Positions 8,204 through 60,765 of a DNA stretch of 64,000 nucleotides are shown here, piece after piece. Made by a program: the position numbers and the translations under genes. The notes beneath the pieces were generated by a model that saw only the letters and a program-made list of their open reading frames with translations, did not search any database and was not told the origin of the DNA. Numbering within the stretch: position 1 is the first letter of the stretch; the number at the start of each line of letters is the position of its first letter. Source of the DNA: a virus (taxonomy: Duplodnaviria; Heunggongvirae; Uroviricota; Caudoviricetes); IMG/VR virus record IMGVR_UViG_3300014598_000002. The stretch is one strand, 5' to 3'.

Positions 8204-8788
8204 GTAGTGAACCTTGCGTGTTTTGTTTATCTCTGGTAAGTGCTTACTGATATTACAGCAAAGGCCAGGGTTGTAAAGACTTATCTATTTAATTTCGGTA
8301 GGCACAAAATCCCAGCATACCGCCATTATACTATGGTTTTTAGGCGATTTGTCACTATTCGCTTACAGAAATAAGTAAGACGTATCTGATATAGTTGAAT
8401 TCCATATTGATACAATAGGTAGTAGTATTGCCGAACTTTCAAATGTGTTCAGTTGGATGATATGAAATGAAAAATATAACTTCTAAATTGACCGCCCTTG
8501 AGGTTGGACACGCATATGCGATTGGACTGGATGGCGTCGCGACGATCCTGACAGAACTAGAATCTGAAGAGCTTCCCGTGGAAATGGTTGATACGACGGT
8601 TTTCACTTTTGAGCTAAAAAATAAACATTTCACTCTCATCAATACCGGTTGCGGCTCCCTTGCCGTGAGAACCATTTAAAACACATTCCTGCCTATAGAT
8701 GCCTGTACGAACAGCTTAGTTGCCTGTTCGTACAGTGATAAATTACGCACATCAGAAAACAAATTGTTTTAATAACAAGGAAATTCTC

Positions 8789-11161
8789 ATGTCCAAAGCC
8801 ATGACCAGATCTGTGCTGAAAGAGGTACAGGACTTTCGCGACTGCGTAAAACGAGTTGTAGCGATGCTATCAGGCAAACAGATACCTGTTGCAGAGCGAG
8901 GCAATGAAGCATATGTCCGCTACAACCGGCGCGGCGAACCAGTGCTGGTAAACATCCCATCTATACCGGACGACGCGTCACCAACCCTCATGAACGCAGT
9001 ACGTGGTTTTCTCGACCATGAGGTAGCCCATATCCTCTTTACTGATCCGAAAGTCGCAATGAAGATGCGCGAGAAAGGAAAGGCTCCGTCTACCGGGCTT
9101 TGGAACGCGCTGGAAGACGTTTTTATTGAACGCAGAATGGGACAGGTATTCAACGGAACTCGTCGCAATTTGCTGGCCACACAGAACCTGGTGATCGACA
9201 AATACTTCATGGGCAAAGTTTCAGAGGCGGTTTCAATCTGCCACGGCAACCAGCGTGAATTGTTCCTGAAATTCTTCCTTTGCCCGGTCGTTCGCGCCTG
9301 GGATGGCCAAAGCCCTTTCATCGACTTTATGGAAGAACACTGGCACCTCATCGAGAAGCCTGTGGCCTTGCTCAAAGAGCATGGTATCGACGTGGCCGTT
9401 CGCAATATGTCGAACACAGAAGACTGCGTGAAGGTAGCAGCTGCTATCGCCCAAATCATGCAGGATATGAAAGACAAGCCAGAGGGCAAATTACCAGAGC
9501 TTAAATCGTCTGCTAGGAAGCCGTCGAAGAGTGAGGATGAGTCAGAGGAAACCCCAGAAGCCGGTGACGAACCGACTCATAGTGAATCAGCACCAAAGCG
9601 TACCAAAGGCGAAGACGACGACAAGGAAGAGCAAGAAGATGATGCCTCAGAAGAGGAAGAGTCTGGGGATTCTGATTTGCCTGAATCAGTAGATAAGGAC
9701 TTACCTACAGAAAATAAAGAAATTAGTGATACAGAAAGTAAATATACAGAAGCAGGCGAAGAGGAATCAGGAGACACCCCAGAATCCGATGATGCCGGCA
9801 TGGAATCAGGTGATTCTGATGACGAAGGTGGTAGTGATGACACTGGCTCTCCAACGCCTGGTGATGGCATTCGCGAAGACGCCGATGACTCCGATGGTTA
9901 TGGCTCTGGCGCCGCTGGCGATGGGGATAGTGATAGTGATGACGGCGAAGACTCCGATGCCGGTCACGGGGAGTCGGAAGGAGAAGGCGAAGAGGAAGAT
10001 GATGCCGCCGATCAAACAGACGGCGAAGGTAAAGAAAATGAGGATGCTGCGGAAGCGCCTGAAGACAGTGAGTCAGGCTTTGTTCCTGCTCCGGATGAAA
10101 TGACTCTGGAGGACGCACTCAAGGCGCTCGACGAGATGGAAGACGGAACAGGCGAAATGACCGAAGACGCACTGTCGGCCACCATCAGCAAAGAGCTTAT
10201 GAGCACCTCACTTTCTGAGTATCGCCCATACGATCGTTCATACGACTTTATCGGGTTGATTGATGAGGCTGAAGAGCATGTAAAGCGCACCAGAAAGACG
10301 TTCGGCGCAATCCCGATGCACTCACCGGTCGATCGCTACCGCATGGTTCCGGAAGGCAGAAGGCTCTTTGAACTGAAAATCGAAAAACATCTGTCAGCAG
10401 GCGTTTCTTCGACTCTGGCCAAAGACCTGGAGCGAGCTATCGCCAGCCGCAATCGAGTTCAGTTTATCCCAGGCCAGAGACGTGGGCGGATACATGGCGC
10501 GAACCTGTATCGTCTGGCAATGAACGACGACCGCGTGTTCCGCAAGAAAGAAGACCACAGAGCGGTGAACGCGTGCGTCCAGCAAGTGATCGACTTGTCC
10601 GGCTCAATGGGCGGCAGGAAGATTCAACTGGCACTCGCCAGCGCCTACACCATTGCGGATGCTCTGGATCGTATCAATGTGCCTAACATCATCACCGGCT
10701 TTACCACGTTTGGTAGCCCAGATTATGAAACCATGTCGAAGCGCGGGTTTACTCGTTTCGAGGCGCTAATGCTGCCCATTATCAAAAACTGGAATGAGAA
10801 AGCTAACTCTCCAGAGATCCGCGCCCGCATGGGCTGCGTGTGTGAGACGTTCCCCCTGCTCAATAACGTCGATGGTGAGAGCGTCGCGCAGCTGGCGACT
10901 CTGTTTGCAGGGCGAATGGAGGACAAGAAGATCATGCTGGTTATGAGCGACGGGGCGCCATGTGCTGCAGGCGATGGGTTCCATCAGCATTTGCGAACCG
11001 TCACCAAAGAAATTGAGACGTTGAGTGACATCGATTTGATGGCTATCGGCGTTCTGACCGACGCACCACGGCGTTACTACAAAAATTACGCACTGGTAAA
11101 CAGCGTAGAAGAGTTAGGGCCGTCAGTCGTCACAGAGCTATCTCGTATCATTCTTGGGTAA
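8789..11161 (+). CDS. cobT: CobT-like vWA-domain protein with long acidic D/E/S/G-rich insert
   Basis: C-terminal MIDAS motif DLSGSMGG (DxSxS). Internal low-complexity acidic region of about 200 aa. Start at the internal ATG with an AAGGA RBS. Confidence 0.75.
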   Translation: MSKAMTRSVLKEVQDFRDCVKRVVAMLSGKQIPVAERGNEAYVRYNRRGEPVLVNIPSIPDDASPTLMNAVRGFLDHEVAHILFTDPKVAMKMREKGKAPSTGLWNALEDVFIERRMGQVFNGTRRNLLATQNLVIDKYFMGKVSEAVSICHGNQRELFLKFFLCPVVRAWDGQSPFIDFMEEHWHLIEKPVALLKEHGIDVAVRNMSNTEDCVKVAAAIAQIMQDMKDKPEGKLPELKSSARKPSKSEDESEETPEAGDEPTHSESAPKRTKGEDDDKEEQEDDASEEEESGDSDLPESVDKDLPTENKEISDTESKYTEAGEEESGDTPESDDAGMESGDSDDEGGSDDTGSPTPGDGIREDADDSDGYGSGAAGDGDSDSDDGEDSDAGHGESEGEGEEEDDAADQTDGEGKENEDAAEAPEDSESGFVPAPDEMTLEDALKALDEMEDGTGEMTEDALSATISKELMSTSLSEYRPYDRSYDFIGLIDEAEEHVKRTRKTFGAIPMHSPVDRYRMVPEGRRLFELKIEKHLSAGVSSTLAKDLERAIASRNRVQFIPGQRRGRIHGANLYRLAMNDDRVFRKKEDHRAVNACVQQVIDLSGSMGGRKIQLALASAYTIADALDRINVPNIITGFTTFGSPDYETMSKRGFTRFEALMLPIIKNWNEKANSPEIRARMGCVCETFPLLNNVDGESVAQLATLFAGRMEDKKIMLVMSDGAPCAAGDGFHQHLRTVTKEIETLSDIDLMAIGVLTDAPRRYYKNYALVNSVEELGPSVVTELSRIILG

Positions 11162-11257
11162 TTGCTTTACCCGTAAAAATAAGTAATCACTTACTATAAA
11201 GCCTATTATATTTATATAAGATATACCCCACGAACGACAAACAGTAAGGAAAAACAC

Positions 11258-60152: not shown

Positions 60153-60278
60153 TCCCTCCAATGGCGCGTACCCCGCGCCATTTTCTTATTCCCGATAACA
60201 AAATGTTTTTTGCCTTATCCATATTGCGATAATTACACCAACAAGAAAACAAAATGTTTACGCATGGAGGATATGCAC

Positions 60279-60560
60279 ATGACCGATTTCACTATCTCCC
60301 CTAAAGCTGAAAACGTATGGCTGGAATCCTGGCTCGACCTGTCGCCGGAAGAACAGCAGGAAATGGATCACGTTGAACAGGACGAACAATATGATGCCCG
60401 CTTCTTCCGCTTTGAGGACAGCGTTTATGATATTGCCGACTTCATGCGCGATGACCGCTTCCCGGACTGGCACGCAGGCTACCCATTAAATGCCTTCGCC
60501 ATGCTGATGATCCGCGTGGATGGCTCCGGCGATACCATCGACGTCGGTCTGCTCCACTAA
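60279..60560 (+). CDS. hypothetical acidic protein
   Basis: Motif B plus a GGAGG RBS upstream. Start at the internal ATG. Confidence 0.5.
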   Translation: MTDFTISPKAENVWLESWLDLSPEEQQEMDHVEQDEQYDARFFRFEDSVYDIADFMRDDRFPDWHAGYPLNAFAMLMIRVDGSGDTIDVGLLH

Positions 60561-60765
60561 GAGAACGAGGCCACCCACGCCGGTGGCCTTAAATGACCAT
60601 CCTGTTTCCCGCAGGCTAAAAACACCCACCTCTTGTCGCCAGGCTACCGAACAACCCTCCGACTCCCTGCCGGCCACCAGCTGCCGGAACAGAACGCTTG
60701 GACGCCTTATGCGCGTAGCGATAATTAAACCAGCAAGAAAACAAGTTGTTTAAAGGATTATCACC

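Follow-up and report, generated by a model that had tools for sequence, protein, structure and literature searches.

The DNA analysed here is a stretch of 64,000 nucleotides (nt) from a virus of the Caudoviricetes (IMG/VR record IMGVR_UViG_3300014598_000002), and we refer to this whole stretch as the window. It carries, upstream of genes of diverse function, many copies of a short conserved sequence that an earlier note on this DNA had termed motif B. The genes behind the copies in the window include, as the earlier note had claimed, a cobT-like gene, nrdB, a gene coding for a DUF4942 methylase and small genes of unknown function (Table 1). Altogether, motif B genes comprise parA, the dnaB/primase/ligase genes, cobT/cobS/DNA polymerase III alpha, a DUF2591 group, nrdB, a DUF4942 methylase group, an HD-domain group, about ten small accessory genes and terS, which is preceded by two tandem sites. 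Local blastn alignments showed that the whole window is collinear with positions 41757-97772 of the Salmonella phage SSU5, bar a few replacements and a 7.7-kb insertion at 960-8691, and window positions 50000-61500 are 93.6% identical to SSU5. Due to this collinearity, the window can be assigned to an SSU5/pHCM2-like phage-plasmid. Six elements were used for comparison, namely SSU5, the E. coli phage-plasmid Cyrano, Klebsiella pJN2-26, Yersinia pestis pMT (NZ_CP045155.1), which is ~97% identical to SSU5, the distant Klebsiella element pCAVP366-109, which aligns to the window over 17 kb only and with ~70% identity, and the very distant Moellerella element pW18-2-b. SSU5/pHCM2-like elements carry resistance genes (PMC9600943). 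In the literature searched, we found neither a description of how the genes of these elements are controlled nor a previous description of motif B.

A 26-mer, ACACCAACAAGAAAACAAnTTGTTTA, was matched eight times in the window with at most three mismatches, always on the plus strand (22824, 36152, 50001, 55905, 58690, 59280, 60235 and 60727), and not once in 100 shuffled sequences. The core dyad, AAACANNNTGTTT, was found 11 times as an exact match, as compared to 0.08 expected occurrences. The claim that motif B is real and repeated is thus borne out, with positions that were off by 0-9 nt. Two copies had been described as partial; the one at 8755 is in fact complete (8754-8770) and agrees with 15 of the 16 specified positions, and the one at 57051 indeed consists of the left arm alone (57046-57061). 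We count 14 sites in the window and 19-20 each in SSU5, Cyrano, pJN2-26 and pCAVP366-109, and all 20 SSU5 sites that match at least 14 of the 16 positions lie within annotated intergenic gaps.

In an alignment of 39 forward sites from four genomes, information content is high at AGAAAACAA and TTGTTTA and falls to about zero at the base in the centre. The six bases preceding this 17-mer, which form the tail of the ACACCAAYAAG part of the 26-mer, carry only 0.45-0.8 bit. AAACAA-N1-TTGTTT is the commonest exact palindrome of six plus six bases in SSU5 (11 copies), Cyrano (9), pJN2-26 (11) and pCAVP366-109 (15), and in the latter motif B is intact at ~70% identity to the window. At the orthologous core promoters of parA, dnaB, cobT and terS, conservation is restricted to the 17-mer and the flanks have diverged, which indicates a footprint of selection on the site itself. 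Among the first 120 matching stretches listed by IMG/VR for an exact 18-mer, 101 are SSU5-like; of the remaining 19, two align in part and 17 are unrelated contigs, mostly AT-rich, with a single match each. Judged from information content, orthologous promoters, over-representation of the palindrome and the distribution in IMG/VR, the recognition core is a 17-bp asymmetric near-palindrome, AGAAAACAAnTTGTTTA. The longer left part of the 26-mer (ACACCAAYAAG) lies outside this core and would be the transcript start common to the paralogous promoter-operator cassettes of the accessory gene cluster. Motif B is a family-wide regulatory site, real and far beyond chance, and its family specificity together with its conservation at orthologous promoters in genomes of ~70% identity supports the earlier proposal of a conserved cis-regulatory element that implies an element-encoded factor.

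Elements from Salmonella, E. coli, Klebsiella, Enterobacter-like hosts and Yersinia share an identical motif B, and the element-encoded binders described below are so far candidates only. Both points would suit a binder from the host, for instance a global regulator or nucleoid-associated protein that is conserved in the Enterobacterales, through which the early genes of the element would be tied to host physiology. However, the motif is essentially confined to SSU5-like contigs among the IMG/VR stretches listed, and it is missing from the related Moellerella element, in which no intact copy was found. The KdgR box reads AAACA-N1-TGTTT and PhoP uses direct repeats, and we know of no enterobacterial operator consensus with the spacing of motif B. 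We therefore regard recognition by a host protein as improbable.

The accessory cassettes have ~70 nt in common upstream of the motif (cTTTT-N3-GCCTT(T/A)T-N5-TTGCGATAAT), and the gene content between sites varies among the relatives, as would be expected if motif B mainly marked the boundaries of mobile 'terminator-promoter-gene' cassettes, or served in their recombination, and were kept by recent duplication and exchange instead of by a binding factor. A ydfZ-like gene (55197-55400, minus strand) lies between two motif B dyads in the window; at this place, pJN2-26 has one dyad only (23662) and lacks a ydfZ gene, which suggests that the ydfZ-like cassette was inserted or recombinationally exchanged at the dyad. 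The retention of nothing but the 17-mer at parA, dnaB, cobT and terS, even in the genome of ~70% identity, speaks against such a role as the main one, and we consider it very improbable. A role as a boundary and a role as an operator would be compatible with each other.

The position of motif B is fixed with respect to the promoter. At 16 of the 39 forward sites, exactly 10 nt separate the motif from the end of an upstream -10-like hexamer (A at position 2, T at position 6), as compared to 0-5 sites at any other offset, and most of the 16 hexamers are preceded by TGn and thus form an extended -10 element (TGnGATAAT). The core promoters have weaker -10 hexamers located 1-9 nt upstream of motif B, and the distance between the two ranges from 1 to 12 nt across sites. 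In the parA promoter, motif B follows the -10 hexamer after 7 nt in SSU5, Cyrano, pJN2-26, pCAVP366-109 and three further elements (L131, L133 and L134). A -35 element is absent from motif B promoters, and a generic sigma-70 scan of the window recovers none of them because this element is lacking. Assuming a transcription start ~7 nt after the -10 hexamer, the 17-mer would cover about +4 to +20. The distance to the start codon is far less uniform. The earlier note had placed a ribosome-binding site and ATG at a fixed distance behind each copy, but the nine forward sites in the window end 11, 11, 11, 13, 16, 18, 18, 31 and 64 nt before the ATG, and over all genomes compared this distance ranges from 10 to 83 nt; the fixed spacing is to the -10 element upstream.

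The same geometry bears on the proposal that a phage-specific factor (sigma factor, activator or RNA polymerase) reads motif B as a dedicated late promoter. The lack of a -35 element, the failure of the sigma-70 scan to detect these promoters and the conservation of the GCCTT(T/A)T block at about -30 among the cassettes would fit such a promoter. However, since a recognisable extended -10 element precedes motif B by a fixed 10 nt, the motif is not itself the promoter, and the ATG, only ~20 nt away from the centre of the dyad, is too near for the dyad to serve as an upstream promoter element. The latter distance rules out an element at -22 of the type bound by P1 Lpa, and we rejected a P1 Lpa-like late promoter on these two aspects of geometry. 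Most genes behind motif B are not late genes but belong to DNA metabolism, partition or the small accessory genes, and a different palindrome, TAGGTAAGTRCTTACCTA, is found at late genes such as those for portal, tail and holin. Pfam scans of ~35 window open reading frames (ORFs), which were not exhaustive, revealed no sigma factor, RNA polymerase, MotA/AsiA or RegA domain. A dedicated late promoter is thus hardly credible, and the absence of a RegA domain from the same ORFs also led us to discard a repressor similar to T4 RegA.

The different palindrome is the second dispersed one in the window, (TAG)GTAAGTRCTTAC(CTA), found at 8236-8247, 45576-45587 and 59702-59713, and is probably what the earlier note had termed motif A. 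The start of a helix-turn-helix (HTH) repressor-like gene (7817-8203, minus strand) is 33 nt away from one copy; within the motif B cluster, a further copy is located before the gene at 59757-60152. The SSU5 copies at 2035, 9071 and 27478 lie ahead of the portal, tail and holin genes, and a variant persists in the Moellerella plasmid, which is without motif B.

Three copies of motif B at 53138, 55485 and 57262 had been reported to lie in reverse orientation, and all three are true reverse complements (coordinates in Table 1). We found three further inverted copies that had been missed, the last of which is degenerate (55169, 55865 and 60195). On the plus strand, inverted copies read TAAACAAnTTGTTTTCT and match the reverse complement of the forward site exactly, down to the asymmetric flanks; this is a property of double-stranded DNA. 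At three promoters in the window, and at their counterparts in SSU5, Cyrano and pJN2-26, an inverted partner is located exactly 51 bp upstream of the forward site, centre to centre, which corresponds to about -39, and the AG side (AGAAAACAA side) is turned towards the promoter in upstream and downstream copies alike. At the promoter of the HD-domain gene, conservation in SSU5, Cyrano and pJN2-26 is restricted to the upstream copy, which lies outside the leader of that gene. Several inverted copies are located directly 3' of the terminator hairpin of the preceding gene. Contiguous arrays of at least four repeats, as expected for a centromere, were not seen; motif B occurs as single dyads or as two dyads 25 or 51 bp apart.

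We propose, with about even confidence, that motif B is a DNA operator for an element-encoded repressor, located just after the start of early and accessory promoters of the extended -10 type. About 15-20 genes per SSU5-like genome have the motif behind their promoter and ahead of their ribosome-binding site. An element-encoded dimer, or dimer of dimers, would bind the double-stranded site and block RNA polymerase, and the promoters would thereby be kept shut while the element is carried as a plasmid prophage. Where an inverted partner is present at about -39, it would bracket the polymerase-binding region together with the forward site and could allow cooperative binding or the formation of a small loop. 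The promoters regulated in this way would drive the replication and nucleotide-metabolism operons, parA, terS and small accessory genes. A dyad centred at about +12 occupies a position from which repressors act, whether it stands alone or has a partner at -39. Recognition of the site as double-stranded DNA is suggested by the perfect dyad that forms no stable hairpin, by variant sites in which the changes are not compensatory, by the faithful inverted copies, by the conserved upstream copy at the HD-domain gene and by the geometry fixed to the -10 element. The dyad alone folds with only about -0.7 kcal/mol and motif B has no match in Rfam, the sole match in the window being a tRNA gene at 847-918; we therefore rejected an RNA hairpin or riboswitch.

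Table 1. Motif B sites in the window with their promoter elements and downstream genes, and the gene for the candidate RNA-level binder. Positions are those of the window; 16/16 denotes a match at all specified positions; SD, Shine-Dalgarno sequence.
Feature	Position	Strand	-10 element and upstream features	Downstream gene and distance	Remarks
Forward site AGAAAACAAATTGTTTT	8754..8770	+	Extended -10 TGATAAATT at 8736-8744	cobT-like, ATG 8789 (site in leader)	Orthologues: SSU5 42726, Cyrano 43104, pJN2-26 91037, pMT 17714
Forward site AGAAAACAAATTGGTTA	22833..22849	+	Terminator hairpin, then -10 hexamer TATTAT at 22819-22824	DUF2591 gene, ATG 22914; 64 nt	
Forward site AGATAACAATTTGTTTA	36161..36177	+	Terminator hairpin; no clear -10	nrdB, ATG 36209; 31 nt	
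Forward site, 16/16	50010..50026	+	-10 TGGGAAAAT at 49991-49999	DUF4942 methylase, ATG 50038; 11 nt	
Inverted copy	53146..53162	-	Directly after terminator hairpin; at about -39 of the HD-domain gene promoter (-10 GAAAAT, 53179-53184)	HD-domain gene, ATG 53215	Degenerate forward half-site from 53195, 51 bp downstream of the centre of the inverted copy; kept in SSU5 85601, Cyrano 85817, pJN2-26 21772; sequence past -10 diverged
Inverted copy	55169..55185	-	Adjoins terminator hairpin		Brackets the ydfZ-like cassette with the 55485 copy
Inverted copy	55485..55501	-		Upstream of the gene ending at 55856	Second dyad bracketing the ydfZ-like cassette
Inverted copy	55865..55881	-	Centre at about -39 relative to the promoter that follows		Its centre is 51 bp from that of the forward copy at 55914
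Forward site, 16/16	55914..55930	+	Extended -10 TGAGATAAT at 55895-55903; 10-nt spacer	ATG 55942	SD AAGGAG directly after the site
Inverted copy	57262..57278	-	Just 3' of -10-like TTATAC/TATACT		Left-arm half-site follows at 57283-57297
Forward site	58699..58715	+	TGCGATAAT at 58680-58688	ATG 58732	
Forward site, 16/16	59289..59305	+	TGGTATTAT at 59269-59277	ATG 59317	
Degenerate inverted copy	60195..60211	-			Part of cassette 60195..60260 (+); 51 bp centre to centre from the next copy
Forward site	60244..60260	+	TGCGATAAT at 60225-60233	ATG 60279	Part of cassette 60195..60260 (+)
Forward site, 16/16	60736..60752	+	GATAAT at 60720-60725	ATG 60766	Element 60717..60752
FljA-family gene	63120..63683	-			Probable start 63647; candidate RNA-level binder

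The leading candidate for a binder at the DNA level is a 119-amino-acid (aa) protein encoded right after parA, outside the window, which might be a ribbon-helix-helix protein. An N-terminal tail, MGDLAKR, a strand, IKSRTMS, and a helix, FTRSDVIRAAI, make up the putative ribbon-helix-helix pattern; strand and helix do not vary down to 49% identity, and the same holds for motif B. The protein gives a weak match to the aCcr1 family (E=1.9e-4, below the family cut-off), which we take to be a ribbon-helix-helix family. Motif B is present in the promoter of its own par operon in SSU5 (30446), Cyrano (29256), pJN2-26 (71830) and L131, L133 and L134, and the gene is expressed in a Cyrano lysogen (89; PMC9928086, S1 Table).

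Several observations weigh against a DNA operator or against this candidate. Motif B has candidate binders only, and for the 119-aa protein neither Pfam nor PDB sequence and profile searches support a ribbon-helix-helix fold; an AlphaFold monomer model (predicted local distance difference test, pLDDT, 64.5) analysed with Foldseek did not support it either. The co-occurrence of gene and site breaks down in two elements. pMT keeps four motif B sites (3580, 17714, 82993 and 83018, preceding a DUF2591 gene, cobT and, with two sites, terS) but is without parA and the gene for the 119-aa protein and has P1-type parAB instead; conversely, the Moellerella plasmid has a homologue with the strand IKSRTVS and no intact motif B. 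pMT is a weak test of the candidate, because it is so close to SSU5 in sequence. Moreover, full forward copies are always found in 5' leaders and mostly abut the SD, as an RNA operator would. The 51-bp spacing may partly be inherited and not independently selected, since the paired cassettes within a genome are paralogous. Published RNA-seq data for an E. coli LF82 lysogen with Cyrano, by contrast, agree with an operator that represses, and give a median of ~7.5 normalised reads for 15 motif B genes, as compared to an element median of 9.8, with a range of 5.7-25 and parA as an exception at 50 (PMC9928086, S1 Table). This silence, however, does not discriminate between the readings because most genes of the element are silent.

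Other DNA-binding proteins fit less well. The HTH repressor-like gene mentioned above is an unlikely source of the binder, as it is absent from SSU5, which keeps all sites, and its own upstream region has the other dispersed palindrome, GGTAAGTGCTTAC, and no motif B. Likewise, the 'repressor-like' SSU5_116 and the HicB-like SSU5_054 are both missing from the window, where the sites persist. An 88-aa protein similar to SSU5_130 shows a weak winged-helix hint (E=0.14) and its gene is silent in the lysogen. SSU5_046 (70 aa, putative winged helix) fits the pattern of presence and absence but is silent in the lysogen as well, and absence calls are unreliable for such short proteins.

The window also encodes a protein of the FljA family (Table 1), and proteins of this type were described as preventing the translation of fliC mRNA (PMC2652032). 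By analogy to the reported action of FljA on the fliC mRNA of Salmonella, the FljA-family protein might bind the motif B leader, AGAAAACAAnUUGUUUA, beside the SD, block translation and thereby destabilise the mRNA, which would correspond to the translational operator that the earlier note had offered as its second option; we regard this as a tentative alternative, unlikely on balance but to be taken seriously. The assignment to the family is clear (Pfam Flag1_repress, PF03614, E=5.7e-97). A sequence search found no solved structure for the family; an AlphaFold model (pLDDT 81.8) predicts two repeats of one helix and five strands, that is, a tandem Hfq/Sm-like protein, and the structures in the PDB that match it best are those of Hfq, an RNA-binding fold (root-mean-square deviation ~1.1 Å over 57 residues, probability 1.00). 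The gene is present in 831 plasmids, most of ~100-115 kb and including 341 from Klebsiella and 62 from Yersinia, and appears as a core gene of ~830 SSU5-like plasmids. To our knowledge, K. pneumoniae and Y. pestis make no flagellin, and the protein would therefore need another target in these species. The phage-plasmid proteins form a subfamily that is only 35-37% identical to proteins named phase-1 flagellin repressors. The gene also tracks motif B among seven elements: both are present in the window, SSU5, Cyrano, pJN2-26, pCAVP366-109 and pMT, whose protein is 97.9% identical, and both are absent from the Moellerella plasmid. In addition, each of the nine forward copies in the window is part of an inferred 5' leader, and most end 11-18 nt before the ATG.

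Some of these arguments have limits of their own. The co-absence of gene and motif rests on one genome, and the adjacency to the SD applies to the nine forward copies if the inferred start is right, is loose at 31 and 64 nt and does not extend to the six inverted copies. The Salmonella/Citrobacter fliC leader and motif B both contain CCAATAA and CAAGTTGT, but this similarity is marginal (p ~0.05-0.3 against shuffled leaders). When scored against the fliC leader, motif B leaders reach a median of 16.5 and other leaders one of 12, but since a single motif is common to all motif B leaders, this group test lacks independence. A perfect reverse-complement dyad would be meaningless for a single-stranded RNA without a stable hairpin, the inverted copies are located upstream of promoters or after terminators, some forward copies lie 31-83 nt from the ATG, and the copy at 57262 has no ORF behind it, which counts for a DNA operator. 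No motif B was found near the FljA-like gene itself. Finally, motif B is unchanged in pCAVP366-109 although the FljA-like protein of this element is only 34% identical; as the motif is invariant wherever it is present, its covariation with a candidate binder is uninformative. The wider claim that the FljA-like protein, with its predicted tandem Hfq/Sm-like fold, is a global regulator binding motif B in ~15-20 mRNA leaders of the element seems to us doubtful, and slightly more so than binding beside the SD as such. Each of the two candidate regulator genes, for the FljA-like and the 119-aa protein, was found in ~800 PLSDB plasmids from Klebsiella, E. coli, Enterobacter, Salmonella and Citrobacter.

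Motif B has partial parallels in several known systems. As for the C1 operators of P1, many copies are dispersed over the genome of a plasmid prophage, each overlapping the promoter of an early or replication operon, and the target genes, apart from parA, are silent in the lysogen. The P1 C1 operator, however, is an asymmetric 17-mer without a dyad, ATTGCTCTAATAAATTT, and is unrelated in sequence to motif B; no product is named C1 in the annotations of SSU5, Cyrano and pJN2-26, and no search with the C1 sequence was made. Small centromere-binding proteins encoded next to parA, such as omega, a ribbon-helix-helix ParB, and the related ParG and ArtA, repress several promoters via short overlapping repeats, and two dimers of omega from pSM19035 bind two inverted 7-bp repeats with high affinity (PMC9499535, PMC2777438). 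The arms of motif B, AAAACAA and TTGTTTA, are likewise 7 nt each, and one site is found in the parA promoter. Omega sites, in contrast, are arrays of 7-10 contiguous heptads at few promoters, whereas motif B forms single dyads or 51-bp pairs at ~15-20 promoters, the ribbon-helix-helix fold of the candidate is putative, and pMT and the Moellerella plasmid break the co-occurrence. With operators of the lac O1 type, motif B shares a site just past the start (dyad at about +12) and a second site that would allow cooperative binding; this likeness is one of mechanism only, as the motif B sites are much closer to each other (51 bp) and both lie within the polymerase footprint. The FljA/fliC pair (PMC2652032) offers a homologous protein in the element and a target in the 5' leader beside the SD, but the leader similarity is marginal, the protein belongs to a separate subfamily of ~35% identity, and a dyad with inverted copies is not expected for an RNA site. 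SAS/ESAS sequences of Cluster K mycobacteriophages are short conserved motifs of unknown function that precede many start codons, are one-stranded and in some cases have inverted repeats (PMC3203893). They differ from motif B in host, sequence and architecture, motif B being located 5' of the ribosome-binding site and tied to the -10 element. SAS overlaps the ribosome-binding site itself.

Two further features lie next to motif B promoters. Just 5' of the cobT promoter, there is an inverted repeat at 8701-8736, CCTGTACGAACAG-N9-CTGTTCGTACAGG, the arms of which read CTGCGCGAA and TTCGCGCAG in Cyrano and pJN2-26; this compensatory double change indicates that the pairing, or a dyad site, is under selection. 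Downstream of the promoter with the 57262 copy, ~1.1 kb (57250-58340) are without a convincing ORF. The first half of this region is rich in A and C and has repeats of GCCATTAC(C/T)C.ATAC at 57466, 57601 and 57694, and the second half is G-rich with many GGGAA/GGA motifs, some of them in hairpins (e.g. 58224-58245). The region has no Rfam match, shares 92% identity with SSU5 and 67-75% with Cyrano and pJN2-26, and could be a long non-coding RNA or a transcription-activated origin.

The window differs from SSU5 in a small number of places. The insertion at 960-8691 adjoins the tRNA gene at 847-918, a tRNA-Asn according to the SSU5 annotation, and carries a tyrosine integrase gene (6719-7825), the HTH repressor-like gene (7817-8203, minus strand) and a divergent gene coding for 70 aa (8467-8679). 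Cyrano has the same integrase/repressor module as CYRAN_44-46, which are expressed in the lysogen, and the module also occurs in pJN2-26, pMT and the Moellerella plasmid. In addition, three minus-strand blocks substitute for SSU5 sequence (16664-18133, 42202-43970 and 47579-49648). One of them codes for a 489-aa DUF4365 protein at the place of HicAB in SSU5 and Cyrano and the remaining blocks code for proteins of 371, 218 and 689 aa; these genes are probably accessory or defence cargo.

Taken together, motif B would provide an entry point into the regulation of SSU5/pHCM2-like phage-plasmids, which are very common in Salmonella, E. coli, Klebsiella and Y. pestis, where the FljA-like gene is also found on pMT. 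A 17-bp site at ~15-20 promoters per genome is a directly testable regulon and a bait for its regulator, and it offers a way to derepress or silence the early genes of the element. If the FljA-like protein did act on motif B, the phase-variation protein FljA of Salmonella would be a relative of a post-transcriptional master regulator of phage-plasmids, and motif B would be the first defined regulon of the FljA family outside flagellin. The arrangement of the sites further indicates that accessory genes travel as insulated cassettes consisting of terminator, operator, promoter, operator and gene, and this organisation may explain how cargo genes are swapped in the SSU5-like family.

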